Part shown: positions 1 through 59,381 of the stretch, one piece after another
How positions within the stretch are numbered: position 1 is the stretch's first letter
Layout: each line of letters starts with the position of its first letter
Sequence record: NC_017969.1
Strand: one strand, 5' to 3'
DNA: 64,000 nt
Source: Escherichia phage vB_EcoS_AKFV33
Translations under genes and position numbers: made by a program
Notes under the pieces: generated by a model
What the model saw: the letters and a program-made list of their open reading frames with translations, nothing else
Databases searched by the model: none
What the model was told of the DNA's origin: nothing

Positions 1-828
1 AGGATGGTGTTTGTAACCACGAACAGTAAAATCATCCTTACTTACCCAGGTCAATACATCCTCCAGAGTTCGGATATTTGGATTGATTTCTAGAGTAGGA
101 TGTGCAAAAGGTTCACGATCGAATTGCTTATGCTCCATCAAAACATTATACTGATCCTCATAGATATGAAGATTGATAATCTTCTGGCGTGCAATTCCTG
201 GTTTAAGGCCTGTAATCTGTGCCATTAATGCTAGAAGCGTATAGCACTGAACCATGTTAAATACTTGGCCTAACAGGAAGTCATTAGATCTCTGAAAAGA
301 GTTCAGGTATAATGTATCTCCCAAAATAGAGAACTGATGAGTGTGCATACATGGACGTAAGCAACCTTTCGAGAACTCTCCAGGATTCCAGAAGGTTAGA
401 ATTTCCCCACGATCATCAATGCCCTTCTTCAGGTTATGATAAATCTTGGCTAGTTGGTCAAACATAAGACCATCGGAATTAGTCCACTGACGTCCTTGAA
501 CACCATAGACTCGTCCCATATCATCCTCACCTTTGCGATATGGATTGTCTAGCCAAGCTAAGTTTTCATTTGCATTAGCATTCCATGTGTTAACACCAAT
601 AGCGCGGAATTGTGCTGCTGAATCATACCCACGCAGATACCCAATCATTTCCATTATTGCTTGTTTTGCAAACGCCTTACGAGTAGTAATAAGGGGGAAT
701 TCCCCTGCACCTACGTTAAAAGTAAAGTCTGCGTCAATAATGGTGAGGCAACGAACCCCCGTTCTAGGATTCGTTACCCACTGACCCTCTGATAGAATAT
801 GTTTTCCAACTTCGATATACTGATCCAT
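1..828 (-). CDS. thyA: thymidylate synthase (3' end cut by window edge)
   Basis: Minus-strand translation starts [11 protein letters not shown] at 826-828 and contains FPLITTRK and [10 protein letters not shown] blocks typical of ThyA; the reading frame runs off position 1; start overlaps the upstream stop (TAATG). Confidence 0.85.
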
Positions 829-1361
829 TAATAGGTAACCAATTCCTGTACAAATCGCAGGCTGTTATCACTGTTTGCGCCAGTTGCGTAAACTAAACGA
901 GTAGATTCATAGTTGTAATCTAGAATCGTATTATCCAGATGTACATCTGCCTCTAGTTTTTGATCACTAAAGATTGTGGATACGAAAGCACTTTCAATAT
1001 GACCATGAATATACATTTCGTACAGTAATGTTGCGCCACCTAAAACCACTGTCTGTTGATCTTTTAAGAATGTAGGCAATGTATCCCCAATCTTAGAAAT
1101 TGGAATGTAAATATCATGCGTAATATCGTCTGGCAGTGGACGATCAGCACGAATAAATAGATCAGAAGCCCCAATCATACGTTCCCTAACGGCGTATGGA
1201 AGAGCTAAATAAGTACCAGCACCAATGATGATGTTATCTGGATTCAACACGTCCAGTTGAGAATAGAAAGCATCTAGTTCTTCTTTGAAGGAACCCCATG
1301 GAAGTTTACCGTGGAGGCCGAACTCCCCATTCGGCCCAACTGCATACATTGCTGTAATCAT
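828..1361 (-). CDS. dihydrofolate reductase
   Basis: 177 aa; N-terminal GxxGxLPW-type motif ([11 protein letters not shown]); sits between thyA and nrdB as in T4/T5-type nucleotide metabolism clusters. Confidence 0.8.
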
Positions 1362-2997: not shown

Positions 2998-3078
2998 ATA
3001 GATATTATAGCAAATCTGGTAGCGATTAGCAAGTAAAATTTCAAAGAAAAAGGAGACCCGAAGATCTCCTTGTTTTTA

Positions 3079-18402: not shown

Positions 18403-18699
18403 ATGACCAAAGCTGAAATTATCGCACAATGTGAAAAATTTGGTGAGTTTTATCTTCATTACGAGAAACTTCGTCAGAAAGGAACCACGTACCTTCAGGG
18501 TACGATGGAATTTGATCCAGCCCAAGATAAATATCTAGCTGAGCGTATTAAACGTGAACGTATTCGTAAAGCGAAAGATGATGAGATCCTTGTCTTCTCT
18601 CGTACTAATGATAGCTTCCGTTTTATTCCTGTCGAGAAAGTCCGTCGTGTGACCAGCCTCCAATCAGAGTTAGATCGTGCTTCTCCAGTAGGCCGATAA
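18403..18699 (+). CDS. hypothetical protein
   Basis: 98 aa; AAAGGAACA ribosome-binding site; followed by a terminator. Confidence 0.5.
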   Translation: MTKAEIIAQCEKFGEFYLHYEKLRQKGTTYLQGTMEFDPAQDKYLAERIKRERIRKAKDDEILVFSRTNDSFRFIPVEKVRRVTSLQSELDRASPVGR

Positions 18700-26922: not shown

Positions 26923-27412
26923 TTTCAAATTGCCCGTATATGCTTTACGGGCTTTTGTATCAATTGAGCAAGAAGGTGATTATTCCGTAATTACAACAAG
27001 ATATAATAAATATGTGCTAGATAACAGGAAGTTGCCTGGCACTTTTTCTCAACGTAGGCTTATTCTATTTGAGAAACGGAAAGAATTACCATATAAGCTC
27101 TATCCTATTAGGGGTAGAATATCAATGTTGTCTCAATTAGTTGGGTCAAAGCGTAGCCAATTTATAGATTCTGATGGAAATCTTATTAACTGGAAGAAAA
27201 CTACATTTTATGATGTTGTCACCTCTAAAGTTTTGCATTCAGCTAGAATTTATAACGGAAAATACCAATGCTATGTAGCTAAAGTTCCATATCCATTTGT
27301 ATTATCCTATGTTCCAGCTTATATAAGCTATATTCTGGTAAATAATAGCCCTGTTATTTACCAAGTCCATCAAGAGGAGCCTGAAATTCCTAGACTTAGA
27401 ATAAAATTATGA
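26915..27412 (+). CDS. hypothetical protein, atypical codon usage (possible mobile insertion)
   Basis: 165 aa; GTG start overlapping the polymerase stop; rich in AGG/AGA/ATA codons unlike the flanking replication genes; no recognisable motif. Confidence 0.45.
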   Translation: MLDFKLPVYALRAFVSIEQEGDYSVITTRYNKYVLDNRKLPGTFSQRRLILFEKRKELPYKLYPIRGRISMLSQLVGSKRSQFIDSDGNLINWKKTTFYDVVTSKVLHSARIYNGKYQCYVAKVPYPFVLSYVPAYISYILVNNSPVIYQVHQEEPEIPRLRIKL

Positions 27413-42077: not shown

Positions 42078-44911
42078 TCCACAGACTGTTCTCCATCATC
42101 CCCTTCAGCTCTAATACGAAAATACAATTTTCTATTTATACCTAGAGCACCACTGTTCTGGAGAGCAAAATCTGCCTTATTATATGTTAATAAATAGTCA
42201 TAAGTATACTGATTTTCAATACGTACACTTCTTAACATCCTATTTTGCGAATCGTGTATTTCAAGGGTATAAAATATACTCTCTATTATATCTTCTTCAG
42301 GTATTCTATCCCAGGCTAGTTTCACATCTGGGCCAACAAACTCAGTTACATCTCCAGAAGCAGTATTAATTACCCTAAAATTAGATACTACACTAAGGTT
42401 TTTAGCAGAGTTAAGTTCTATAGACAGAGTCACCGGGGAACTTCTTCTACCATTAATATCTACTGCCCTTATCTCAAATATAGCCAGACCTGCTGGTTCT
42501 CCAATTATTTCTTGGATCATACGTTCGTTAGGGTTGGTCTCTAACTGTTGTACTATGTAAGGTTCGGCATGGCCTGAGTGCACAATAGAGTAATAGACTA
42601 CATTATTGGTTAGACTCGGAAGCCAGGATAACTCACCATTTTTACCTATAGAACCTACTAAACCGCCAGGAGTAGGGGTATACTTAAAGTCTCTAGGAGG
42701 AAGCACATTGTTACTAATATCTGGTATATCATTACCACTATTATCTACTTGATCAGAGTTGATAAATACATCCTCTCCATACTCTTGTAGGGTAACATTT
42801 ATCTTTCCTTCCCTAGAGTTTTCCACTTCGTCTACTAGGAAGTACTTCTTATCCCATCCGTAACGGTCGTATGTAAATGCAATAGCATCATTAGGCTCAA
42901 TACCGATGAATTGATATGGCAATGAGAAAGAAAGTGTTCTTGAGTATCTAGATTTCTTAAGTTCCCTATCAGCAAAACTTCTTGCAGTATAATAATTAGT
43001 AATATTAGCAAAAGATAGTTGTAGTTTTTTATCCAGGTTCTTGTCTTGTTCCTTATACTTGGAGTTATAGAATGTAATGGAATTAGTTTTCCAGCTAAGG
43101 GCTGGGTCTACGATAGATGCTTGAACTGAGTTGAATTTATTTCTACCAGTAGTATCTGATAGCTCCAAATCACCATAAGTATCTAGAAAATTAATCTCTA
43201 ATGGAGTATTAGAGTATTTTTCTACAGTAACCCTGTACTGGCCAGATAAGTTGTTAATAGCCCCACCGTAGGACTCTAATAAACCTTGCACATTTTTAAA
43301 TACTGATTCAGATGTATCCAGAATAGTATTCATTTGTACTATTTGTCTATTTTCTGCTAGTGGATCAGTCCACCCAACGTATCTCCAATATGGCTGCCAA
43401 GATACCTGATAGGATTCATCTATAATATCTAAAATAGCTGCTTCCTGTATTAATTGCTGAAGGGGGAACTGATCAATGGTAATATTAGCACCGTATCTAT
43501 CAGAGGTTAAGTAATCAAGTGTTTGCCAAATACCATTTAAACTAGTACTATTAGCAGTTACTCTACCATCAGAATGATAGACTTTTACTTTTTTACCTTG
43601 AATTTCAGCACTAACTTCAGGAATCTCAGTCCTATTTTCATTAATAGTGAAGCGCACCACTGCGTATGCAGTATCTAATAGTTTATACCTAGCATCCCAG
43701 TACTCCGGTCCATTGCCATTCATATTCTGAAGGTAGAACCCACGTTCTTTAGCTATATCTACTAGTACTTCAGAAGCCGTTTGATCAGATTTTCCATGAT
43801 ACGTCCAAATTCTTATGTCACCATTACCATCATTATACTTATACTCCTGCCCATGCACGGAAGGACTACTAGAAGGTGTTCCTGACGCTATTCTTTGCAT
43901 GGTGTCCCCAGCCACTTTTTTAGTACCAAAGCAGGTTCTAGCGGAGCTATCATTAGCATCTACGCAGATCATAGGGTTATCACCAAAAGAGAAATCAAGA
44001 AAACCATCAATCTCCCCCTCAGCAAAGGCGTATACGACATAAACTATGTTGGGATTGTGTAGTTCTGTATCAGCAAAAATTGGTATTCCTGGTATTTTCT
44101 GTACTCCATAAACTACTGGGATATATTTAGCAGCAAGGTTAAAATCTATATCTACTTCCTTAGTGACAGTTTCATAGTATTTTTTAAGGCTGTAGCTTCT
44201 AGATAAGCCAAATAGTTTTTTCTTTGATTTTAGCTTATACCTTTCTTCCTGTACTTGGTACTTTGCTAGTATAGATATACTCTTATTAGAATGAAAGAAC
44301 CCATAGTCTTCTTGGTACTCAGGTCTTTTAGCACCATTAGATGGTACTAACTGTCCAGCTACAACTTCAAGTCCCCTATGGGAGGCGTCATCAGTATATC
44401 TACCATTAACTCTATCAAAATCATAGAATTGGTTAGAACAATTCCAGGTAATTGTAGAGGTTCCTACTCCAGAGGTACTAATGTTATCTTTAATGCCCCC
44501 TCCAGTAATCCTCCCCCTAAAGTATAGTAGAGGACCATTTGTATCTGGGTCTACTGGTAGAATAGAACCATCTTCGGTAATAATTGCTTGATGAATTGAT
44601 ACGGTTCTATCTAAGAAGGATACACCATTTTGCACTAGTTTTAGTACTTCATCCTGTGCTGTACCAGTAATAGTAAAAGATAGACTACCAATAGATAAAT
44701 CTCTATTTTGTTTGTGTGTGCTAATAGACTTAACTTTACCCGCCTGGTATAGGATGCCATTATATAGTACATCCCTAAAATAATCAGTTAAATAAATAAA
44801 AGCAGTACTAGTACCAGTAGAGCCAGGTAACTCTAGAGAAATTAGACTAGCAGTTTTTATTCTGCTATTATTTTTTAAGTAGTTTCTAGCACTATCTAGT
44901 ATTTTTTTCAT
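42062..44911 (-). CDS. baseplate hub protein pb3-like
   Basis: 949 aa, the length I recall for T5 pb3; position between Dit and pb4. Confidence 0.6.
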   Translation of the reverse strand: MKKILDSARNYLKNNSRIKTASLISLELPGSTGTSTAFIYLTDYFRDVLYNGILYQAGKVKSISTHKQNRDLSIGSLSFTITGTAQDEVLKLVQNGVSFLDRTVSIHQAIITEDGSILPVDPDTNGPLLYFRGRITGGGIKDNISTSGVGTSTITWNCSNQFYDFDRVNGRYTDDASHRGLEVVAGQLVPSNGAKRPEYQEDYGFFHSNKSISILAKYQVQEERYKLKSKKKLFGLSRSYSLKKYYETVTKEVDIDFNLAAKYIPVVYGVQKIPGIPIFADTELHNPNIVYVVYAFAEGEIDGFLDFSFGDNPMICVDANDSSARTCFGTKKVAGDTMQRIASGTPSSSPSVHGQEYKYNDGNGDIRIWTYHGKSDQTASEVLVDIAKERGFYLQNMNGNGPEYWDARYKLLDTAYAVVRFTINENRTEIPEVSAEIQGKKVKVYHSDGRVTANSTSLNGIWQTLDYLTSDRYGANITIDQFPLQQLIQEAAILDIIDESYQVSWQPYWRYVGWTDPLAENRQIVQMNTILDTSESVFKNVQGLLESYGGAINNLSGQYRVTVEKYSNTPLEINFLDTYGDLELSDTTGRNKFNSVQASIVDPALSWKTNSITFYNSKYKEQDKNLDKKLQLSFANITNYYTARSFADRELKKSRYSRTLSFSLPYQFIGIEPNDAIAFTYDRYGWDKKYFLVDEVENSREGKINVTLQEYGEDVFINSDQVDNSGNDIPDISNNVLPPRDFKYTPTPGGLVGSIGKNGELSWLPSLTNNVVYYSIVHSGHAEPYIVQQLETNPNERMIQEIIGEPAGLAIFEIRAVDINGRRSSPVTLSIELNSAKNLSVVSNFRVINTASGDVTEFVGPDVKLAWDRIPEEDIIESIFYTLEIHDSQNRMLRSVRIENQYTYDYLLTYNKADFALQNSGALGINRKLYFRIRAEGDDGEQSVEWASI

Positions 44912-45522
44912 AAACTTTCCCGTAAATTTAATGAGATGCCGGAATATGTTCCGTTATTATTTAATGTAGATCCGAAAGCATCACCATTCATGAGTTTTGT
45001 TCTAAATAGTATCCCATTAAATACTGGTTTTTCAGCTCCAGTAGTAGTTACAAATAAATCAGGATATACGTTAATAGACCATGAATTACCAGATCTATTA
45101 AATGATGTTATTTTATAAACTTTTGGGTGATTGGATAACTTAAATAAATCACCTGGTTTAGGAATACCGGTAAGAACACCTTTTGTATCCATAGTAATAT
45201 TGGAACCTTTCTGTCCAGCAGGTATATTTACTAAGTTAGTATTACCCCTAACCCTAAAAGCCTCATACTGAGGTAGTATAACATCAATGTAGCCTCCTGT
45301 CCTCTTATACTCTAGAATAAAGGAATCTAGAACACTGAATTCATCAGGAAACAATTCTGGGTAAGAAATGTTTATACCCCAGTACTGAGCGGATACCTTA
45401 ACTTCGTTAACTTTACCATTAGGTAACTCATCACGAATTACTGGGTCATTATCAATCAGGTTAACATTTTCGAATCCTAAGCCTGAAAGTTCTGGATTCG
45501 TGTATGGGTCTGGTAATCTCAT
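44908..45522 (-). CDS. distal tail protein (Dit, pb9-like)
   Basis: 204 aa; directly downstream of the tape measure gene; strong AAAGAGGAG ribosome-binding site. Confidence 0.6.
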   Translation of the reverse strand: MRLPDPYTNPELSGLGFENVNLIDNDPVIRDELPNGKVNEVKVSAQYWGINISYPELFPDEFSVLDSFILEYKRTGGYIDVILPQYEAFRVRGNTNLVNIPAGQKGSNITMDTKGVLTGIPKPGDLFKLSNHPKVYKITSFNRSGNSWSINVYPDLFVTTTGAEKPVFNGILFRTKLMNGDAFGSTLNNNGTYSGISLNLRESL

Positions 45523-45549
45523 AGTTAATTTCTCCTCTTTAATAACAAT

Positions 45550-45578
45550 ATTATAATAGTATTAGAAAATTTTATCAA
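45550..45578 (-). promoter_or_regulatory. sigma70-consensus promoter inside the tail gene cluster
   Basis: Minus strand reads TTGATA, 17 nt, TATAAT, followed by the leader ATTGTTATTAAAGAGGAGAAATTAACTATG. Confidence 0.55.
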
Positions 45579-45595
45579 GAAATTTTTATTTTTCC

Positions 45596-45625
45596 ATAAA
45601 GAAAAGGAGGACTCAAAGTCCTCCT
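45596..45625 (-). terminator. rho-independent terminator after the tape measure gene
   Basis: Minus strand: AGGAGGAC-TTTGA-GTCCTCCT hairpin followed by TTTTCTTT. Confidence 0.7.
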
Positions 45626-45631
45626 CCAGTT

Positions 45632-48600
45632 TTAAGAATTTCCTAATGTTTTCAGACTAGCACCGTTCTCATTCAGAGCTAATTCTACTGCGTCTCTCAG
45701 AGCACCACTATTACTAGAGGCAAACTCTCTAAAACTTGCAGCATCCATAGCACTAATATTCAGGATGATAGGTCTTCCTGAAGTTGAGTTAGACGAGGTT
45801 TTTAGCTCATCATTAGGTGTAGCTTTCATAGGAACCATAGGGGTAACTACTTCTGTACCATGCTCACCCATTTGATAGCTAACCCCTGGATACATATTAC
45901 CCCCCTCAGCACGAGGAACGAAAGAGTTGGCACTACCTATACCTTGATCGCCACGAATATAAGATAGTTCACCTGCATTAGCAGACATGGACACATCTAT
46001 ATTCTTCTGACGCTCTCCTAAGGTTAAGTAACTAGTTGTATCCGCCCCAGAATCCGCAATACTTGACATACTAGATGCAGAGGATGCCTGAGCAAGAGCT
46101 AATGCACCTGCCAAACCTGCCGCTACCATCAGAGGGATAGAGAACGGGTATGGTACAGCTGTTGCTGCCTGCATAACTGCTACTGCAGTTTGGATGATAA
46201 TCTGCTTCTTAGCTGCATCTTGTTGAATCTTCAGCTTTTCAGCTTCCAACTTCTTCAACTTAGCTTTAGATGCTTCTGATTTACCATCTCGTTTCTGCTC
46301 TGCTGCAATAGCCTGATCAATCGCACTAACCTGTTGACTAGTACTATATTGAATCATAGAGGCTACAGTCTGCATACCTGCTGCGATCGTGGAAGTAGTG
46401 TCTAAAGACCCCATAGAGAACTGAATCATAGCATTGGTTAAATTACCCATGCTTTGAGCTACAGCAGTTGCTTCGGAATTTAACTCAGATAGTTTAGAAA
46501 TTGCCTGATCATAAGAAGCCATTCTATTTCCCATATCAGCAAAATCTTTATCTTCTCCAGATAGTCCAGTTGTAGGAGTATACACAGCACCTAAAGAAGA
46601 TCCAACAGAAGCTTGCATCTCCGCATTTCTCTGTGCCCTTAAACCTGCTAGTTGTGCCCTAGTTTCAGCTATCTTTTTATTATACTCCGCTTGTGCCGCA
46701 GCATTACCTAATGTTTTCTGCTTTAAGTCTTCATATAATTTTAGCTGTTCCTGTAAGCGCTCCGCATTTCCCATTAGTGGTTTAGCAGTAAATTGTCTTT
46801 GCTGTTCTTCCTCTCTACCAGCAGCCATTGAAGCAATCTGATCTTGGCGGAATTTCCAGATTTCACGTTCAATTTGGGCTTGAGCACGTCTAGACTGTTC
46901 AGCCTCTTTCTGTTTATCAGCTTGTTTTGTATACCATTCGTACTTCTCCTTTTCAATGGTCAATTCAAGATTTAACTGTGCTAGACGATACTGAGTATCT
47001 GTCATAGTACGGTTATTTAAGAGAGCTATCTCACGATCTACACCCAGGATTTTATCTGTATAATCCTTAACCTTCTTCTGAGCCTCCATACCCTGATTAG
47101 TAAGTTTAAGTTTCTCCAGCTGAATTTTTTCAATTTCTTTCTCAACAGCTTTATTTCCCTGATTAGTTTGAAGTACACGGCGTAAAGCAGCTTCTTGCTC
47201 TTCTAACTGTTGGAGTTCTAAACGCCTACCAGCTTCCTGTGCTTTTTCTTTATCTTTAGTTTGGTTGTATACATCAGCTATCTTCTGTTGAACTGCTAAC
47301 TGGTTCTTAGTCTCATTACCAGTTAGTTTAACGTACTCAGATAAGGCCTGAGACGCAGTTTTCATTTCAGACAGAGTATTATAGCCTAGGTTAAGATTTT
47401 TAACGTATTCATCAGCACTCTTACCAGTACCTAGAGATAGAGATTCTATGTTTTTTATAGCATCTGCTAAAGTAGCACTAGTTTTAGCAGCAGTATCTGT
47501 ATTCTGAGCAACGTTCTGTATATCATTAGCTAAGTCACTAGCAGTTTTCTTAGTCTGATTGTATGCTTTCTGCTGCTCAGTTAGTCCTTTTAATACAGTA
47601 GAGTTAAAATCATATACAGCACCAGGATCAGTAGTATCTCTCTGTAGATTAATTTGCTTCTGAAACTCTGGACTAGCCTTTGCAGCAGCAGCCCCGGCAG
47701 CTTGATACGCTGATTTCCAAGCATTGAGGTTCTCTGTAGAATCCTCTACTTCTTTACCAAGTCTAGTTACTTGTAAACCCATAGCTGCAGTTTCTGCTAC
47801 AAATTGCTTATTGGCCTCCGAAGCACCTGCTGCTGCAAGACCAACAGGAATACCTTCACCAACTTGACGTATAGCTAGTTTTGTATAGAAATCTGCTTGT
47901 TCCATTCGTTTATCGAACTCAGATTTTAGCTTATTACGCTTATCAAGAGATTCCTTATACATATCTAGAGCTTTATTATAGCCTTCTTCAGAAGCAGCTA
48001 AACTTAAAGCAACAGCACCAACGTTGGTAGGGTCTATCTGTCTATTAGTTTTTTCTTGGGCCCTAGCTGCCTCAGCAGATATAGAAGCCTGAGATGTATA
48101 AAATACTGTGTTGATAGCATCAATTACTGGCCCTAAATACTTAGCAGCAGCTTGTTGTATTTTTCTTAGTGCAGCATCTGCATTAGCAGCAAATTGCTCC
48201 CATGGAGTTGCACGTAGTACTTCATCTAGGTAGCCAAACCGCTTAGTAGATTCAGCAATTACCGCGTTAGCGTATGCTTGTTGTTTCTGGAAAGTGGTAA
48301 GACTATTAACATTATATGTTATACCTGTGTTTGCAGCATTTAACTGTTTAACATAATCAGCGTATGCGTCATTAAGACGGATGGTGACACCAAGTTCATC
48401 CAGAAGTTCGATTTCTTGTTTAGATACGCCCTTAATTACACGGTTAAGTGCATCAGTCATATCAACGCCAAGAACAGCAGCCGCACGACGAGCTACTAAA
48501 CCAAATTTATTAAGTTGTTCAGCATCAAATCCATAAGCAGATGCTGAAGATGCCTGTCTCATTGCTTCCTCAAAAGAAATAGCATATCCAGCAGCTTCTT

Positions 48601-49312
48601 GTAGTGATCTAGCAAGGGTCTGAACAGGAGTACCTGTCTGAGTACCTACTATAACACCAAATTTTTCTAGACGATTCAGCTGATCACCTAGTTTAAGTTG
48701 TTCGAATGCAGATTGCAAAACGAAGATGTTGGAAGCAAGAGCTGCGTACATAATAGGTAAACTACCACCGATCTTAGCCATTGCCGCAAAATCACGAGTT
48801 GCACCACGTGCTGAACCAGAAGTATTACCAATAGCTCTAGAAGCTCTACCAGCGGCACCAGCAGTGTCATTAAAACCTCTAGCTGTACCACCTAATGCTC
48901 TATTAGTATCATATAGTCTATCCTGTACTTTTTCTGTTGCAGCTGCAACATCATTACCCATTGTTTTAACAGATCTAGAAACTCCATCGAATCCAATTTC
49001 TAGTTTATCTGTTACTTCAATAAGCTGGATAGCCAGGTAGTCTAGCTTATCACCAATACCATCAATGGATTTAGTGATACCAGCCATACCCCTACTAGCT
49101 TGCATTTTAGTAAGACTTTTCGCTGCTCTGTCTGCTGCCCTCTCAATGGAATAAAGAGTTCTGGGCATTTTACCTAACTGCTCATTTGTCAGTTCGGAAG
49201 CAGCAGCAGCATTTTCCAACGCATCAGATACGTTTTCAATAGACTTTGCAGTACGAGTTGCCCCCTTCTGTTTAACGTCTATTAGTAATTCTCGTATTAG
49301 CTTATCAGTCAT
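45632..49312 (-). CDS. tail tape measure protein (pb2-like)
   Basis: 1226 aa; long Ala/Gln/Lys-rich coiled-coil centre; position upstream of Dit. Confidence 0.85.
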   Translation of the reverse strand: MTDKLIRELLIDVKQKGATRTAKSIENVSDALENAAAASELTNEQLGKMPRTLYSIERAADRAAKSLTKMQASRGMAGITKSIDGIGDKLDYLAIQLIEVTDKLEIGFDGVSRSVKTMGNDVAAATEKVQDRLYDTNRALGGTARGFNDTAGAAGRASRAIGNTSGSARGATRDFAAMAKIGGSLPIMYAALASNIFVLQSAFEQLKLGDQLNRLEKFGVIVGTQTGTPVQTLARSLQEAAGYAISFEEAMRQASSASAYGFDAEQLNKFGLVARRAAAVLGVDMTDALNRVIKGVSKQEIELLDELGVTIRLNDAYADYVKQLNAANTGITYNVNSLTTFQKQQAYANAVIAESTKRFGYLDEVLRATPWEQFAANADAALRKIQQAAAKYLGPVIDAINTVFYTSQASISAEAARAQEKTNRQIDPTNVGAVALSLAASEEGYNKALDMYKESLDKRNKLKSEFDKRMEQADFYTKLAIRQVGEGIPVGLAAAGASEANKQFVAETAAMGLQVTRLGKEVEDSTENLNAWKSAYQAAGAAAAKASPEFQKQINLQRDTTDPGAVYDFNSTVLKGLTEQQKAYNQTKKTASDLANDIQNVAQNTDTAAKTSATLADAIKNIESLSLGTGKSADEYVKNLNLGYNTLSEMKTASQALSEYVKLTGNETKNQLAVQQKIADVYNQTKDKEKAQEAGRRLELQQLEEQEAALRRVLQTNQGNKAVEKEIEKIQLEKLKLTNQGMEAQKKVKDYTDKILGVDREIALLNNRTMTDTQYRLAQLNLELTIEKEKYEWYTKQADKQKEAEQSRRAQAQIEREIWKFRQDQIASMAAGREEEQQRQFTAKPLMGNAERLQEQLKLYEDLKQKTLGNAAAQAEYNKKIAETRAQLAGLRAQRNAEMQASVGSSLGAVYTPTTGLSGEDKDFADMGNRMASYDQAISKLSELNSEATAVAQSMGNLTNAMIQFSMGSLDTTSTIAAGMQTVASMIQYSTSQQVSAIDQAIAAEQKRDGKSEASKAKLKKLEAEKLKIQQDAAKKQIIIQTAVAVMQAATAVPYPFSIPLMVAAGLAGALALAQASSASSMSSIADSGADTTSYLTLGERQKNIDVSMSANAGELSYIRGDQGIGSANSFVPRAEGGNMYPGVSYQMGEHGTEVVTPMVPMKATPNDELKTSSNSTSGRPIILNISAMDAASFREFASSNSGALRDAVELALNENGASLKTLGNS

Positions 49313-49325
49313 GTTTTATTTTTCC

Positions 49326-49360
49326 CAATAAAAAAGGCTCTGGGCAAATCACCCAGAGCC
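49326..49360 (-). terminator. rho-independent terminator immediately upstream of the tape measure start
   Basis: Minus strand: GGCTCTGGG / CCCAGAGCC stem followed by TTTTTTATTGGGAAAAATAAAAC and then the ATG. Confidence 0.7.
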
Positions 49361-49395
49361 AAGCCTCATCGTGGAACGCCCATTGGAGGAAACTT

Positions 49396-49764
49396 TTATC
49401 GTGCACGAGATCTAGCATGTGGCTTAACGTTAGGAATTCTTCCGTTTTGCGGTTTATGCTTCTCAGCACGTTTACGTGCAGCATCTACAGCTTTAGCATC
49501 AAATATATTGATAATGTGTAGAACAAATTCTTTCTCTATAGGATCAGTAATCCCATAAATATCGAATAAAACACCTAGAGCAGCTTTGTCTTTGCCTATA
49601 AATATAGGAAAGTCACCCGGTATGAAACAGTCAACTAGACTGTTATAGATATTCATACTAATAGCTACAATAGGTGGAAAGTCTTCAAGTTCAACAGGCA
49701 TAGCCTTAGGGTCGGGTTCTATACCCATTGACTCACAAAGTATTAAATATTGTTGTTTAGTCAT
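49396..49764 (-). CDS. tail assembly chaperone candidate (T-like segment)
   Basis: 122 aa; immediately upstream of the tape measure gene; weak Shine-Dalgarno; its frame stays open 29 codons upstream of the ATG. Confidence 0.4.
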   Translation of the reverse strand: MTKQQYLILCESMGIEPDPKAMPVELEDFPPIVAISMNIYNSLVDCFIPGDFPIFIGKDKAALGVLFDIYGITDPIEKEFVLHIINIFDAKAVDAARKRAEKHKPQNGRIPNVKPHARSRAR

Positions 49765-49825
49765 TTTAGATGCTGAGCTTTTAATACACTTATCTGCAAA
49801 ATCAGCAACAGCATCTAGTAGTTCT

Positions 49826-50230
49826 TTACGCTTTTGGGCTACGAAAAGTATCTAAGTGGAACACTGTCTGGTTGATCCAAGAATCAAACGCAGCAGAGTT
49901 CTGCATAAGCATTACAGCATTATCACGACTAAAGGGAACTTCAGTAGCGGGATCAGCGTCTGTTTCAATCAGCATCAGTTTTTCAACATCACCAACAGTT
50001 AAGCCAGTCCAGCCTTTAATAGCTGCGTCAATAAATGCTTCAATGAACTTATCATCATCCTGTACCTGAACCAAAGTACCATTAACCCATTCATCGCGTT
50101 TAGCAGAAGAAATAACACGTTTAGAGGTAGCACGAGACATATAGTTAAGTTCTAGTTTAAAATTCGGCATACCTGGGTAGGAAAGAGTAATAGTACGAGT
50201 ATCAAGAGTAATATCTTTTAAATTAATCAT
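49826..50230 (-). CDS. tail assembly chaperone candidate (G-like segment)
   Basis: 134 aa; position between the tail tube region and the tape measure gene. Confidence 0.4.
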   Translation of the reverse strand: MINLKDITLDTRTITLSYPGMPNFKLELNYMSRATSKRVISSAKRDEWVNGTLVQVQDDDKFIEAFIDAAIKGWTGLTVGDVEKLMLIETDADPATEVPFSRDNAVMLMQNSAAFDSWINQTVFHLDTFRSPKA

Positions 50231-51126
50231 TTTTTAATTTCTCCAAAGAAATCTATTCTCACTGGGTCTGAAGAAGCAGTAGGTATAATATCCCACTCAA
50301 CTCTATACACATCTGAGAACTCTAGGCGTTTTGTAATACGTGCTGAAGGAAAATCTATAGAAATATTATTATTTCTTATATTTAAAGGTACATCTGTCTC
50401 CGGTTCGATATTGTAAACCATATCTCCTGCAAAACGTTTTAGGTAATATAGAGAAATGGTTGCCGAAGCATTCATTTCATTTACATAAGCTCTTTTATTA
50501 TTATAAATTTTATTTATATCAAAAACACTCTTATCCTCTCTCCAGGAGCACTGCTGTTGGAAAGACAAAGAGGCAGAAATAAGACCGGGTAAGATGCTGC
50601 CATTAGTAGAAGCTATTACTGGGCTGTAAGACATTACTTCACCCTGTATAATAGAAGAAGCTTCTCTATAGGTAGATACTTCTGAGAATTTCCCAGACTC
50701 AATACCAACATTAAGAATTGGTATATTCTTATCTAAAGAAAAATCTACTGTAGATACATAGCAGTTTTCAAAATATACACAGTTATTATCTTTGTTTACT
50801 ATATAGATATTGAACATAATAGGTTCAATATTACTACTATATAGTGGGAGTAAGAAAGTATTACCTTTTCTATCAAAACCTAACCATTCAAAGAAGTTAG
50901 CTTCAGTAAGAGTATTACTAAAATTTACTGCTAGAGAGATAGAAGAGGGGGTTTGAGCATTTATAATAGAGTCTGCATAGTTAGTTCTACGATGAACAGT
51001 CCTACGAAGAGTCTTGAATTCCTCGTAGGAAGTCTGTATATCATAGTTTGATAGGGCATCAAAATGAAATGCCCTACCATCATACTCAACTATAACTTTT
51101 GACTCTCTCATTAGAGAGTAGTACAT
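50227..51126 (-). CDS. tail protein (collar/p140-like, by synteny)
   Basis: 299 aa; directly downstream of the tail tube gene. Confidence 0.4.
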   Translation of the reverse strand: MYYSLMRESKVIVEYDGRAFHFDALSNYDIQTSYEEFKTLRRTVHRRTNYADSIINAQTPSSISLAVNFSNTLTEANFFEWLGFDRKGNTFLLPLYSSNIEPIMFNIYIVNKDNNCVYFENCYVSTVDFSLDKNIPILNVGIESGKFSEVSTYREASSIIQGEVMSYSPVIASTNGSILPGLISASLSFQQQCSWREDKSVFDINKIYNNKRAYVNEMNASATISLYYLKRFAGDMVYNIEPETDVPLNIRNNNISIDFPSARITKRLEFSDVYRVEWDIIPTASSDPVRIDFFGEIKK

Positions 51127-51130
51127 TTAA

Positions 51131-52528
51131 TTAGCCACCTGCTGTTACAGTAATCTGTTTAGTACCTTTAACTCCAGAACCATCTTTAGCAGTAGCTTCT
51201 ACAGTTACTTCACCAGTTTTAGTGGTGTCCGCAGTTAATAGGCCAGATTCTGGATCAATTGTGGCTGCATCACCGGCGGTGATAGCCCAAGTAACCTCCT
51301 TATTCTTTGCAGAAGAAGGAGTAACTTCAACACTCATTTGAAGAGTAGCCGAGTTGTTTACTGTAGTAGTATCACCAGCAGATTTAACAGTAATTGCGGT
51401 TACAGCATTAGTAGCACCATCACCATTAACAATCAAGTTATTAATAGTTGTTTTGGTATATTTACTAGAGAAGCCTAAGTAACCTTCATCACCAGCATCC
51501 AGATCAGATGGAATAGCTTTAAATTCTACTGAAGTACCAAGTACATCATCAGTTTCAATAGTAGGAATATTAACGTGTGCTTGTTTAGCTACTAGAATAG
51601 CCGCAGGACGTTCTTCATCGTATTCACCACCAAGTACTAGAGCAATTTCGAAGCGGTTAACTACCTTCAGAGTTTTGATAAGATCTTTATACAGCTCCAT
51701 AGAACCAAGAGATTTATCATTCAGATAAGCAGTTAATGAACCAGTTAGTTCAAATGCGCCAGTAAATGAACCGATCGGAATATTCACACGGGACATAATA
51801 TTCGGGGTTAGGTACGTGATGTTGTTATTAATAGTGAAAGTACCACCAGTAATAGGAATATCATATGCTTTACCAGAATCCATATCCTTAATTTTCAGGA
51901 TAGTAAGTTTGTTCTTAATATAAGAACTCTGGATAGTCATATAAGTTTCATCATCAATACCTAATTCATCTGGGTCAAATGGTTGCGCATCCAGAGGAAT
52001 AAGCTGATTACCATTACCAGACCAAGTTACACGACCAATATCCTCAATATCAACGTTAACTTCTGCCTGATTAATCTGACATGAATCGATATAACTCCAT
52101 GCTTTATCAGTCAGAATATAAATATGTAACATTGCTAACTCGTGATAAGAGTTATCTTTGAAGTTAACCATAAAGTTAGCTTCGTTATTGTGTGCCCCTG
52201 TATTACCTTCTAAGTTAATAGCTTTACCACTAGAAAGTGCATGCCATAACATATAGTCAGGAACGATTTGCTTCTGATCCTCTTTATTGATATAGGGCAG
52301 GATGTAAGTAGAGAAACTCCACTCAGCTGCGTTTAAAGAGTCATTAAAACGTTTAGAACCACGAGTTGGACGCGGACCAGCTTCATTAACAGTAATATCT
52401 GTTGAGTTACTGTCCTGACCCCAAGAAATATCATCCTGAACTAGAATCTCTTGCGTGTTGGTCTTATTATGACCAGTCTTAACCGTAGACACGAAGATTC
52501 GAGTATTACGTAATAGTTGTAAAGACAT
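51131..52528 (-). CDS. major tail tube protein (pb6-like) with C-terminal Ig-like domain
   Basis: 465 aa; C-terminal Big_2-like segment (TAITVKSAGDTTTVNNSATLQMSVEVTPS...KEVTWAI); high-expression codon usage. Confidence 0.7.
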   Translation of the reverse strand: MSLQLLRNTRIFVSTVKTGHNKTNTQEILVQDDISWGQDSNSTDITVNEAGPRPTRGSKRFNDSLNAAEWSFSTYILPYINKEDQKQIVPDYMLWHALSSGKAINLEGNTGAHNNEANFMVNFKDNSYHELAMLHIYILTDKAWSYIDSCQINQAEVNVDIEDIGRVTWSGNGNQLIPLDAQPFDPDELGIDDETYMTIQSSYIKNKLTILKIKDMDSGKAYDIPITGGTFTINNNITYLTPNIMSRVNIPIGSFTGAFELTGSLTAYLNDKSLGSMELYKDLIKTLKVVNRFEIALVLGGEYDEERPAAILVAKQAHVNIPTIETDDVLGTSVEFKAIPSDLDAGDEGYLGFSSKYTKTTINNLIVNGDGATNAVTAITVKSAGDTTTVNNSATLQMSVEVTPSSAKNKEVTWAITAGDAATIDPESGLLTADTTKTGEVTVEATAKDGSGVKGTKQITVTAGG

Positions 52529-52554
52529 TTAATTATTTTCTCCTAATCTGTAAC

Positions 52555-53040
52555 TTATCTGCGAAGTGACCTACGTGGAGGCTGATACCTCACTGTTACA
52601 TTTATTTCTGCTAAACCATATGGGGCCAGTAGACCCTCATCTGTACTAACTGATGTAATGATCATATCAGTTGCCTCACATGGGAAGGTCGATCCATTAG
52701 GTTTACTAACAGTATATTCTAAATTTCCACCTGTGTCAATAACGGTTTTTATATCCGCTACGAGTTTTTCAAGTTGCTCTTGAATGTCTGTTTTCTCTTT
52801 ATCATACACCAGGATAGGAAGTTCTAAAAACATCCACTGTTGACCTGAGGGAAGATACTGCCCAGTTTCAGTTCCGATATGAACTGCCACATAAGGAAAC
52901 TCTCGTATTTCCTCAAATTTATAAGTTTGACGAGAAACGTTTCCATATAGGTTATTAAAATATTCGTCAGGTTGAGAACCGTCCAACTGTTTAGATATAC
53001 GGTCAACCAGAGCTTGTGCAATACTTGTTCTATGATCCAT
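52555..53040 (-). CDS. tail terminator / tail completion protein candidate
   Basis: 161 aa; position between head-completion genes and the tail tube. Confidence 0.35.
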   Translation of the reverse strand: MDHRTSIAQALVDRISKQLDGSQPDEYFNNLYGNVSRQTYKFEEIREFPYVAVHIGTETGQYLPSGQQWMFLELPILVYDKEKTDIQEQLEKLVADIKTVIDTGGNLEYTVSKPNGSTFPCEATDMIITSVSTDEGLLAPYGLAEINVTVRYQPPRRSLRR

Positions 53041-53043
53041 TTA

Positions 53044-53811
53044 TTAGGTTCCTTGATTAACCTTGATTTTATATCTAGAGTGAATCAGGTCTCTTGCAGC
53101 TTTTGCTATAGCCTCACCAATAAGTTTTTGTGGGTTTCTAGCACCTGGGTAGGGTCGTAAAGATAATCTTCTATATGTAGATACTGCTGGATTAAATACA
53201 GAATATGGACGTACCATATAATTATACGTCACGTTTAGTTCGGGGGCACCTTTACTAGTCTCTGCATCCCTAAGCATAACATCTTTAATTTTTAGAGAAT
53301 TTGCAAATCTACCAGTTCTAAACTTTAATGGCGCTCCTGCCTTTTTCATATCTTTTATCAAATATTCCTTAGCAACTATTTCAAGAATAGTACGCATATT
53401 ACTATTTGATACAAAACGACCGGAAGCACCTGTTACTGCACCAGAATAACCATCTTCCACATCTCTAGGATCACCGAAGTTTACCTGTACTCTACCTGTA
53501 GAACGTTTTTTACCTACAGCAGATTTTTTACCAGCGGTTGCTTGTATTAAGTTCTCTAGAGCACCTAAATCTCCCGAAAGATCTAAACTAGAGGATACCG
53601 CTTTTAGTATAGAGGCTGTTCTAACATCAAGAAGATCTTGTGATACGGGTTTTGAAAACTTAAAAGATACTTGAGCAACAGTACCATCTCTGGTAGGATC
53701 TTTCAGTCCTGTTTCAACAGAATATACAACAGTATTCTTATTGTTCTCGGAACGCCCAACATTATCTAGCTGCTCCTTAATAATTTGTGTAGCTAAATCA
53801 GAAAGAGACAT
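53044..53811 (-). CDS. head-tail joining protein candidate
   Basis: 255 aa; synteny only. Confidence 0.3.
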   Translation of the reverse strand: MSLSDLATQIIKEQLDNVGRSENNKNTVVYSVETGLKDPTRDGTVAQVSFKFSKPVSQDLLDVRTASILKAVSSSLDLSGDLGALENLIQATAGKKSAVGKKRSTGRVQVNFGDPRDVEDGYSGAVTGASGRFVSNSNMRTILEIVAKEYLIKDMKKAGAPLKFRTGRFANSLKIKDVMLRDAETSKGAPELNVTYNYMVRPYSVFNPAVSTYRRLSLRPYPGARNPQKLIGEAIAKAARDLIHSRYKIKVNQGT

Positions 53812-54323
53812 TATACTCTCCTGTAAACTTCAATAATAGTACGAATATGCTCTGGAATACCAGACTTAGTATTATTAAAAGTAACTGTTTCTCCGCCAAT
53901 TGTTTTAGCTTGACGGTAATCCTGTTTATGCCAATGATCTACTAGCATACATGCTGCAAGTTTGAGATCCTCAGGTATTGGATTAAATCCACCTTGTGTG
54001 TATTCTACATCCATATAACCTTCTGGAGGATTAAATTTGAGAAGGATAATACCGTCAGAGTATAGCTTATACTGCTCTGGGTCAATCTCATTATCGTTAA
54101 TCGTCACTTTAGTTACGGAGGTAGCAGATGGTGAACTAAGAAAATATTTCCTACGTGTAGGTTTTGTATTGATTAACTGATCTACCGCATCAGCATCATC
54201 CATGCCTAGAAGGCTCGTAATCAGCGCATTGGCAGCAGTAATCATCATTTCTACACCAGACTCTAATTCAGGTCGTTTTAAACTACCGTATAATCTATAA
54301 TCTTCGGCTGTGATGATTTGCAT
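53811..54323 (-). CDS. head completion / adaptor protein candidate
   Basis: 170 aa; begins 10 nt after a terminator that follows the capsid gene. Confidence 0.3.
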   Translation of the reverse strand: MQIITAEDYRLYGSLKRPELESGVEMMITAANALITSLLGMDDADAVDQLINTKPTRRKYFLSSPSATSVTKVTINDNEIDPEQYKLYSDGIILLKFNPPEGYMDVEYTQGGFNPIPEDLKLAACMLVDHWHKQDYRQAKTIGGETVTFNNTKSGIPEHIRTIIEVYRRV

Positions 54324-54333
54324 TTATTTTTCC

Positions 54334-54362
54334 CAATAAAAAAGGAGAGCCGAAGCTCTCCT
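54334..54362 (-). terminator. rho-independent terminator after the major capsid gene
   Basis: Minus strand: AGGAGAGC-TTCG-GCTCTCCT followed by TTTTTTATTGGGAAAAATAA and then ATG. Confidence 0.8.
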
Positions 54363-54382
54363 TATCGGCTGAAAAGCCTGTA

Positions 54383-55759
54383 TTAAGATGCAGCGTAAGC
54401 ACCAGATACAACGCCATTACTAAAGTAACGTTGCAGGTTAACACGCTGAGTAACGTAGTACGCATCACGCTGTTTACCAGCTTGACGCTCACGTTCAACA
54501 GTAACAGCACGCTGACGAGGCATTACAAAGTTATCTTTGTAAACAATAACTGCGAACTCTTTATCTGCTGCTTTAGCTGGGAAATACTCAGAAACTACAA
54601 CCGGAAGACCGTAAATACGACCAACCTGACCTTGCAGTTTAACAGCATCATTACCAACCTGTGCAACATCCTGCCATTCTTCATCTTCCAGCAGATCGTA
54701 GTAAGCATCCATAGATACGATCAGTACCAGTTTGCTCAGTTTCAGACCATGACGGCCCAGTTTACGACGCAGTTTAGAAATGGTTTTAGCAGTTACTAGT
54801 ACAGAACCATCAGCTTTAGCTTCGGTGGTAACTTTAGCACTATCTTCACTAGCCAGAGTCAACAGACCTTTCGGCTGACCAGTACCATTACCAGTCATAA
54901 ACGCTTCTTCGATAGAAACGGCATGTGCTTCGATCAGACGCTTACGCAGCAGAGGCAGCAGGGAGAAGATTGCATCTTCTTCAGTTTCATCAGTGATGAA
55001 GGACTTAGCAGCCAGCTTGTAAGTTTTGAAACTAATCTCAGTCAGAGTACCTTTAACTTCGTCACCAACAGTTTCGTCAGTACCGAATTTGGAAGCATCT
55101 ACCCAAGTAGCTTTTCCAGCTTCTGGTTCAACGAGCATAGTAAGAATTTTGCTGGACATTGGCAGCTCATCGAACAGTGCACCAACTACTAATTCTTTCT
55201 GCAGATCACGGATAATACGGGTGGAAAAGATGGTTTCGTATGCTTCGCTAGACATAGAAACAGAAGAAGAACCATTAACAGCCTTAACGTGGGCTTTACC
55301 ATGCTCAGTTTCGAATACATCCTTCTCCATCATATAGGACAGAAGAACTAGTTTTTCAACTTCGTCTTCGAAAGCTTCCTGAGTACCATACAGTGCTTTA
55401 GCTACGCTATCACCAACGAAGGAACGACCTTCACGAGCTGCTAGCAGAGATTTGATTTCGTCCTGAAGACCAACAATAGTTTCCTGCTGTTTTTCTACAG
55501 TCTGTGCAAACAGTTCTGCGCTCTTCTTGGATTTTTCATCCAGGGATTTAACCAGTTCCAGAGCTTCTTCTAGCTTCTGACGATCTTCGCCAACTGCTTT
55601 AGAAACCAGATCATTCATACGAGCCAGTTCTTTTTCTTCCTGCTCTTTACGCATACGTTCAGCTTCAGCAGCTTTCTGAGCAGCAGTAAGACCTTCCAGA
55701 GATTTAGCCAGATCACCCAGACCAAGTTCTTCTTTCAGCTTATTAATATCAATAGTCAT
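54383..55759 (-). CDS. major capsid protein precursor (pb8-like) with N-terminal scaffold-like delta domain
   Basis: 458 aa; N-terminal ~120 aa strongly coiled-coil and charged, consistent with a fused scaffold domain; high-expression codon usage. Confidence 0.8.
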   Translation of the reverse strand: MTIDINKLKEELGLGDLAKSLEGLTAAQKAAEAERMRKEQEEKELARMNDLVSKAVGEDRQKLEEALELVKSLDEKSKKSAELFAQTVEKQQETIVGLQDEIKSLLAAREGRSFVGDSVAKALYGTQEAFEDEVEKLVLLSYMMEKDVFETEHGKAHVKAVNGSSSVSMSSEAYETIFSTRIIRDLQKELVVGALFDELPMSSKILTMLVEPEAGKATWVDASKFGTDETVGDEVKGTLTEISFKTYKLAAKSFITDETEEDAIFSLLPLLRKRLIEAHAVSIEEAFMTGNGTGQPKGLLTLASEDSAKVTTEAKADGSVLVTAKTISKLRRKLGRHGLKLSKLVLIVSMDAYYDLLEDEEWQDVAQVGNDAVKLQGQVGRIYGLPVVVSEYFPAKAADKEFAVIVYKDNFVMPRQRAVTVERERQAGKQRDAYYVTQRVNLQRYFSNGVVSGAYAAS

Positions 55760-59210: not shown

Positions 59211-59381
59211 AGAATCTCCTACACCCCATGTAGAGCATTAATTTTTCTTGTTTACGTTCTATTATGGGAGAAGTTCTCCCGATCAATGAATATAGTATAC
59301 ATAATCGTATCGAATTTGTAAAGGGGATTTTAAAATGCAGGAATGGGATACCAACTGAGTAGTATCCCATCCTATACTTAT

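Follow-up and report, generated by a model that had tools for sequence, protein, structure and literature searches.

Terminators abutting the next expression signal in the late structural region of a T5-like phage

Introduction

Why should nearly the same A/T-rich tract stand behind three different hairpins in the late region of one phage genome? The question is raised by the 64,000-nucleotide (nt) stretch of Escherichia phage vB_EcoS_AKFV33 (sequence record NC_017969.1) analysed here and called the window in what follows. On its minus strand, where all the window features described below lie, such a hairpin-plus-tract module follows each of three genes, those for the major capsid protein (M1), a tail chaperone (M2) and the tape measure protein (M3). 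An earlier note on this DNA had proposed that the modules are built-in attenuators setting protein stoichiometry, and that the conserved tract may also be a late promoter or a processing element. The analysis leads us to conclude, with good confidence, that the modules are intrinsic terminators punctuating the late structural operon, the tract being the next expression signal butted against the terminator.

The late region and its three terminators

The window belongs, by its sequence, to a T5-like phage (Tequintavirus): over the 300 bases round the tape-measure start, identity is 99% to many T5-like phages of Tequintavirus and 80-90% to Salmonella Epseptimavirus phages. According to the open reading frames (ORFs) and their synteny with T5, the minus-strand ORFs from 58 to 42 kb keep the T5 late order, namely portal, decoration protein, protease, major capsid, head-completion/adaptor, tail completion, tail terminator, tail tube, p140, two chaperone ORFs, tape measure, distal tail protein and baseplate hub. 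All T5 gene classes use the host sigma-70 RNA polymerase (Klimuk et al., PMC7472727).

The presence of three GC-rich terminator hairpins, each followed by a near-identical tract, as the earlier note had described, is confirmed at all three positions by the terminator scan and by shuffling. M1 comes after the major capsid protein gene (54383..55759; pb8 homologue, syntenic with T5.149 / T5p145), and its hairpin, AAGGAGAGC-TTCG-GCTCTCCTT (54342..54363), has 9 bp, a UUCG loop and a folding energy of -15 kcal/mol. At M2 the hairpin is GGCTCTGGG-TGATTTG-CCCAGAGCC (49336..49360; as a whole, GGCTCTGGGTGATTTGCCCAGAGCC; -20 kcal/mol), while M3, located behind the tape measure protein gene (45632..49312; pb2 homologue of 1226 aa), has GGAGGAGGAC-TTTGA-GTCCTCC (45603..45627; -16 kcal/mol). 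These are the full set of strong minus-strand terminator-like sites that the scan returned in the 45-58 kb structural block. With stems of 9-11 bp, energies of -15 to -20 kcal/mol and the tails UUUUUUAUU (M1, M2) and UUUUCUUUAU (M3), their reading as intrinsic terminators is supported. A weaker scan candidate, the 13-bp hairpin GGATGGGATACTACTCAGTTGGTATCCCATTC in the head-gene region (59341..59372), has no proper T-tract. Bidirectional termination was considered for the modules and rejected, since the opposite strand, as read from the sequence, has no T-run past the hairpin; the annotated consensus of the T5 nick sites, 5'-NPu pGCGCN-3', is likewise absent from the modules.

Strong intrinsic terminators carry the motif GC(U)7RU, in which the released RNA has a purine at -2 followed by U at -1 (Battaglia et al. 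2026, bioRxiv 10.64898/2026.05.29.728758). Compared by eye, M2 (GC-CUUUUUU-AU) has all of it but one U, M1 (UC-CUUUUUU-AU) has no G at -11, and M3 is a poor match. The TTTTTTAT part of the tract would be accounted for in this way, as a terminator U-tract followed by a putative purine-U release site.

All three hairpins have already been marked as putative rho-independent terminators in the T5 records NC_005859 and AY587007. T5 (NC_005859/AY543070, AY587007, AY692264) has the orthologous features at the same junctions and in the same gene order: M1 is identical, the M3 region with its promoter differs at a few bases, and at M2 an endonuclease gene parts the terminator from pb2, with none at this place in the window. 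The three modules are known T5 features, that is, ordinary operon punctuation and no new kind of element; the shared tract goes unmentioned in the T5 GenBank annotations (the records only, genome papers aside).

Moreover, a hairpin with a T-run is found at the same three junctions in Demerecviridae of Escherichia, Salmonella, Klebsiella, Enterobacter, Proteus and Vibrio, as well as in three IMG/VR contigs; six of the relatives compared stand at genus level. The M1 stem presents a compensatory G-C to A-T change, seen as the variant AGAGAGC/GCTCTCT in records L012 and L013, and 5 of the 22 predicted pairs of the M2 stem have both-sided compensatory changes among relatives. More than 120 unrelated metagenome contigs contain the core of the M1 hairpin, GAGAGC-TTCG-GCTCTC, together with five T; the flanks are unrelated, and only 4 of 122 go on with ATT..GG. 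The hairpin is therefore a common optimum, to which the tract is not tied. A role as binding site of a T5-specific factor was rejected, because the core with its five T is present in those contigs and also in Erwinia, Paenibacillus and Pseudomonas phages.

Composition of the shared tract

The tract reads TTTTTTATTGGGAAAAATAAA in M1 (54323..54343), is the identical 21-mer in M2 (49315..49335) and reads TTTCTTTATGGAAAAATAAAAA in M3 (45583..45604). The exact 21-mer is present twice in the window against 0.01 expected. For the exact 11-mer GGAAAAATAAA, the motif search through the rest of the DNA that had been suggested in the note returned three occurrences in 64 kb, all directly past the three hairpins, against 0.13 expected, and 0 of 100 shuffles reached three. 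The local alignment of M1 with M3 (CTCCTTT--TTTATTGGGAAAAATAAA) scored above 2000 of 2000 shuffles. T5, with 112 kb of its genome read, has the 11-mer only at M1 and M3, the M2 copy being displaced by the inserted gene, and none of the 14 other annotated T5 terminators shares the tail. A chance likeness of low-complexity sequence past terminators might be suspected in an AT-rich genome, where terminator tails are T-rich by definition and where the 11-mer with one mismatch shows no striking enrichment (7 found, 3.3 expected); however, this reading is already refuted by the shuffling controls, the other T5 terminators also speak against it, and its probability is practically negligible.

What is shared can be resolved into its parts, and the comparison shows the tract to be a composite of ordinary signals (U-tract, weak Shine-Dalgarno (SD) sequence, and A-rich spacer or UP-like A-tract), not a unit. 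The M1 tract consists of the U-tract plus AU (54343..54336), the weak SD GGGA (54334..54331) and an A-rich spacer, the final A of which is the A of the ATG (54323) of the head-completion / head-tail adaptor gene (53811..54323; 170 aa). At M2 the tape-measure ATG (49312) is located 2 nt (AC) past the tract. The earlier note's statement that a start codon follows within about 10 nt in these two cases is thus correct. The full 170-aa adaptor sequence beginning at the tract ATG (MQIIT...) is that deposited in the solved structures 8hqo and 9ilp, the N-terminus of this protein is kept across genera, and the N-terminus of T5 pb2 has been confirmed by N-terminal sequencing, according to a note in AY692264. 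GGGA pairs with the 3' end of 16S rRNA at -4.2 kcal/mol with a spacing of 6 nt in M1 and 9 nt in M2, and presumably serves as SD in both. These SDs are among the weakest of the late block, most of whose other genes range from -5.4 to -9.3 kcal/mol.

The composite nature of the tract is illustrated by T5, where the gene of a 250-aa endonuclease is inserted exactly between TTTTTTATT and GGGAAAA of the M2 tract. The T-run stays with the hairpin, while pb2 retains a ...CAGGAAAACATTAG-ATG leader of GGAAAAC type; as the T5-type endonuclease gene is absent from the window, the M2 tract is intact here. Furthermore, the bases between tract and ATG vary in close relatives (AAATG, AAAACATG, AAAATATG, AAATTATG and GGGAAAATAAAA, and a run of 13 T in one phage), and this variable spacing fits a ribosome-binding site (RBS) spacer and not the geometry of a promoter. 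In L037, L039 and Vibrio D122 the hairpins are unrelated, yet the succession of T-run, AT, GG, A-rich run and ATG is present, as in TTTTTATAGGTAAAATATG and TTTATAGGGGAAAATAATG; the same layout is found in the unrelated Pseudomonas phage TIETA (GGGGAGC-TTCG-GCTCCC-TTTTTCATT-GGAG-ATAAAAA-ATG). In our reading of 17 annotated T5 terminator tails, about five have an ATG within some 20 nt (one with TTTGGGATATGTAAATG) and about seven are followed by a promoter.

The third module and the promoter P-G25

At M3 no start codon is found near the tract: a sigma-70 promoter comes next, and the ATG is reached only at 45522. This promoter (TTGATA-17-TATAAT, 45550..45578) is the homologue of the T5 late promoter P-G25, with 11 of 12 consensus positions; NC_005859 and AY692264 list it under that name, AY587007 as putative late promoter T5P39. 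The tract is made up of an interrupted U-tract and an A-run, and its 11-mer lies 6 nt upstream of the -35 hexamer. Counted by hand from this hexamer, the A-run stands at about -40..-50, which would be a UP-element-like position; UP elements are A/T-rich blocks at -40 to -60 acting through the alpha-CTD, and the A-run may stimulate P-G25 likewise. The segment ATAAAAATT, at -46..-38, resembles what we take to be the consensus of the proximal UP subsite. A second internal promoter, the P-J5 homologue (TTGACA-17-TATACT, 52711..52739), lies inside the tail-terminator gene and is annotated in NC_005859 and AY692264. The transcripts of P-G25 and P-J5 appear 30 min after T5 infection, as shown by primer extension (Klimuk et al., PMC7472727).

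The first gene of the P-G25 unit encodes the distal tail protein (44908..45522; pb9 homologue) and has a strong RBS, AAAGAGGAGAAATTAACT-ATG, with an SD energy of -9.1 kcal/mol. Its leader, ATTAAAGAGGAGAAATTAACTATGAGA (45522..45546), looks identical to what we take to be 'RBSII' of the pDS/pQE vectors.

The architecture of M3 and P-G25 is not exceptional in T5. The terminator 18607-18637 with the promoter 18550-18624, and the terminator 27219-27251 with P10a, have the same arrangement, the terminator tail merging into the A/T-rich region upstream of the next sigma-70 promoter; they differ in belonging to the early region and in not carrying the GGAAAAATAAA block. A terminator-then-promoter junction is also present in the window outside the late block: a hairpin paralogous to that of M1, AAGGAGATC-TTCG-GGTCTCCTT (3046..3071; three differences, with one stem pair changed from G-C to U-G), is followed by the promoter TTGCTA-17-TATAAT with an extended TG (3004..3032).

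Attenuation and unequal expression of the late genes

That the modules act as attenuators setting protein stoichiometry is plausible, by analogy with the systems described below, for M1 and M2. Both lie between co-directional genes, with no promoter-like site before the next gene and with the ATG 0 and 2 nt past the tract, respectively, and both separate abundant upstream from scarce downstream products, i.e. capsid from neck proteins at M1, and tube and chaperone from tape measure at M2. An attenuator should have no promoter behind it, and M3 does not qualify, P-G25 being the next element. In the virion of BF23, mass spectrometry intensities are 4.0e10 for the capsid against 2.1e8 for the head-completion protein, a drop of about 190-fold across M1, and 4.6e9 for the tube against 9.7e8 for the tape measure protein.

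The following sequence of events may be proposed. Host RNA polymerase transcribing the late (minus) strand would form the GC-rich hairpin, pause on the U-tract and release the RNA at about ...UUUUUUAU, a minority of polymerases reading through. We infer partial termination, the release point and the stoichiometric purpose from the layout of the signals; read-through itself is inferred because essential genes follow M1 and M2 without a recognisable promoter. In the read-through RNA of both modules, the next bases would be the weak SD GGGA and the A-rich spacer 6-9 nt before the AUG, and the U/A-rich surroundings may aid ribosome loading. The low-copy proteins encoded past M1 and M2 (head-completion and tape measure) would in this way be reduced at two levels, that of termination and that of a weak RBS. 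At the level of the operon, transcription starting at the promoter that precedes the receptor-binding-protein gene would cross the head genes and mostly stop at M1, the read-through RNA carrying the low-copy head-completion, tail-completion and tail-terminator genes. P-J5 would then re-boost transcription for tail tube, p140 and chaperones, M2 would lower it again ahead of the tape measure, and M3 would close the unit, with P-G25 and its A-rich block at -40..-50 setting transcription going again for the genes of distal tail and baseplate, by way of the strong RBS.

Several known systems resemble this arrangement. In T7, the intrinsic terminator T-phi stands right after the major capsid gene 10 and the downstream tail genes are expressed by read-through; like M1 it sits after the most abundant structural gene, although T7 has its own RNA polymerase whereas T5 uses the host sigma-70 enzyme. 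In E. coli, a partial terminator plus a poor RBS keep a low-copy product far down at rplL-rpoB and at rpsU-dnaG (with its weak dnaG RBS); these attenuators are bacterial and, unlike M1 and M2, stand farther than about 10 nt from the following start codon. The terminators TJ, TF, TG and TH of phiX174 are leaky intrinsic terminators between co-directional structural genes, as here, and their stepwise attenuation leads to unequal amounts of capsid proteins (bioRxiv 10.1101/2020.03.05.979765). They differ in having been measured and in being weak (20-40% each), while those of the window look strong by hairpin energy and U-tract.

The tail chaperone genes and a conserved element at M2

Between the chaperone stop codon and the M2 terminator lies a near-invariant 29-nt element, TTTCCTCCAATGGGCGTTCCACGATGAGG (49364..49392; TTTCCTCCA..GGGCGTTCCACG..GAGG), which folds as a hairpin abutting the terminator and holds an anti-SD-like CCUCC. 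Phages ranging from T5 to those of Klebsiella, Enterobacter and Proteus have it almost unchanged, and each of 33 T5-like contigs carries it once. An Rfam scan of the 45-55 kb region at E<=1 returned only two meaningless sub-threshold matches, none of them to the element, and a search for a pairing partner or for further copies gave only chance 9-10-mers. Pairing of its CCAAU with AUUGG of the tract is possible in the window and was discarded, not being kept (by eye) in the Klebsiella, Enterobacter and Proteus phages. Nor can the element be explained by coding or by stop-codon read-through, since the frame, also judged by eye, is not conserved between close relatives.

The two tail-chaperone ORFs just upstream (134 and 122 aa) are joined through the +1 frame rather than the -1 frame, within 49826..49850. 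From 49850 on, the downstream frame has no stop and runs across the final 8 codons of the first ORF, among them C-CCA-AAA-G, with a slip candidate, CCCAAAAG, at 49838..49831; the SD of the second ORF is nearly nil (-0.1 kcal/mol). This arrangement suggests a product of +1 (or -2) programmed frameshifting.

Endonuclease genes at M1 and M2

The M1 terminator is separated from the capsid stop codon (54385..54383) by a small hairpin, GGCT-TTTC-AGCC (54367..54378). In Enterobacter phage KKP_3711 its stem bases differ but still pair (GGCA/TGCC), and in Klebsiella phage IME260 the pairing is retained with another loop. In L012, L013, L019, JLBYU43 and PHZ191 this hairpin is the insertion site of an endonuclease gene. 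Homologous CapR/T5orf172 (GIY-YIG-like) genes were located in T5 (L002, 15497..16272), L012 (1305..1877), L019 (1289..1888) and L198/L199. About 6 of 505 T5-like records have a gene of the L019 type immediately before the M1 terminator, and L012 and L013 carry a second type. The GGG of the tract is lost in all five endonuclease-bearing M1 alleles that were read (ATTATTAGG or ATTGGAAAAA), and these genomes retain an intact consensus tract at the other module; for this reason the tract alone cannot be the recognition site of the endonuclease, and that candidate was rejected.

Some further observations concern these alleles. The endonuclease-free phages DT57C, DT571/2 and Gostya9 match the variant M1 region more closely than the consensus phages match it (97-99% against 94.6%), and the ATTATTAGG tract was read directly only in L011. 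The M1 endonuclease cassette of L012 has its own hairpin (CCCCCTCGATAGAGGGGG) and, upstream of the start, a 36-bp perfect palindrome, ATATTATATTAGTATGACGTCATACTAATATAATAT (1222..1304 for both), which may be an operator or a recognition site.

Alternative explanations

If the tract were a discrete late element, it would be either a promoter or UP element at all three sites or an RNase site separating the mRNAs. The restriction of the 11-mer to the three late terminators speaks for this, as does the M3 copy, which precedes the -35 hexamer of a proven late promoter by 6 nt; the same offset leads to CTGATA at M2 and TCATCA at M1, AY587007 places the 'putative late promoter T5P40' over M1, and AU-rich single strand beside a stable hairpin is a classic RNase E context. 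However, the promoter scan found no sigma-70-like -35/-10 pair of at least 9/12 after the M1 or M2 tract. The best -10 candidates (TTATAC/TATACG and ACTAAT/CTAATA) lack A-11 or T-7, are poor and not conserved, and consist of coding bases accounted for by the conserved protein N-termini; transcripts from them would begin downstream of the ATG and so be without a start codon. Manual alignment of M1 and M2 to P-G25 at equal offset likewise gave no usable -10. Besides, the spacing from tract to gene shifts by 1-3 nt among relatives (3 nt in Sepoy), and T5 is viable with its M2 tract split by the insertion. As for T5P40, in AY587007 (L200) it spans the M1 terminator and tract (408..497) and accompanies a mis-called ORF137 (535..871) that is 26 codons short; judged by the 170-aa sequence of 8hqo and 9ilp, the two are apparent annotation errors, and T5P40 is unsupported as a promoter. 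A discrete element of this kind is, in consequence, very unlikely. The corresponding suggestion of the earlier note is not supported at M1 and M2, where there is no -35/-10 and the ATG is in the tract or 2 nt past it, and stands in part at M3, where the A-run occupies -40..-50 of P-G25.

Another explanation concerns the origin of the likeness. M1 and M2, and nearly M3, may be identical by common descent or gene conversion of duplicated modules, possibly promoted by homing endonucleases, with no sequence function beyond terminator and RBS. The likeness of M1 and M3 is significant and takes in CTCC of the 3' stem arm; between M1 and M2, the upstream parts are weakly alike (GAGAGCTTCGGCTCT against GAG-GCTT-GGCTCT, p ~0.04). 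Furthermore, the endonuclease genes at M2 of T5 and at M1 of other phages are homologous (36% identity, E 3e-34), and the same gene with the same variant tract is present in a Tequintavirus and an Epseptimavirus, a pattern to be expected from co-conversion during homing. Against this, M1 and M2 of distant genera diverge downstream of TTTTTTAT(T)GG, which indicates no ongoing homogenisation, and M1 variants (ATTATTAGG) have no counterpart in M2 of the same genomes. We consider this explanation improbable; it is compatible with terminators abutting the next expression signal, as it deals with origin and not with function.

A number of observations nevertheless weigh against the view that the modules are simple terminators followed by ordinary signals. 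The composite model alone gives no account of the identity of M1 and M2 over 21-23 nt in Tequintavirus and Epseptimavirus, nor of the 29-nt element next to M2. The same applies to the M1 hairpin and tract, which are 92-95% identical to those of Klebsiella and Proteus phages, the flanking coding DNA reaching 62-76%: terminator stems can normally covary freely. Both M1 and M2 have the look of strong terminators, for which read-through may be very low, and a promoter that has escaped recognition might feed the genes past them instead; such a promoter is predicted in AY692264, where the adaptor gene ends, and T5P40 of AY587007 would be another, over M1. The searchable literature contained no 3'-end, read-through, Term-seq or RNA-seq data for T5-like phages. 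The above-flank conservation of M1, the 29-nt element with its CCUCC and the identity of the M1 and M2 tracts are the reasons why a further reading is left open, in which M1 and M2 are sequence-specific cis-acting RNA elements through which a phage factor regulates read-through or tape-measure translation; to this we attach a low probability. As a variant of it, the shared tract could be part of a CapR/T5orf172 homing site.

Conclusions

The three modules are best regarded as intrinsic terminators of the late structural operon, each directly followed by the signal for the next step of expression: a weak RBS at M1 and M2, and a late promoter at M3. From a methodological point of view, they illustrate that a repeat right after terminators can be a mere terminator tail fused with the translation signals of the next gene. 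For the biology of the T5-like phages, they show how a phage depending on the host RNA polymerase alone could set very unequal levels of its structural proteins, the means in that setting being a few terminators, two internal late promoters and graded RBSs.

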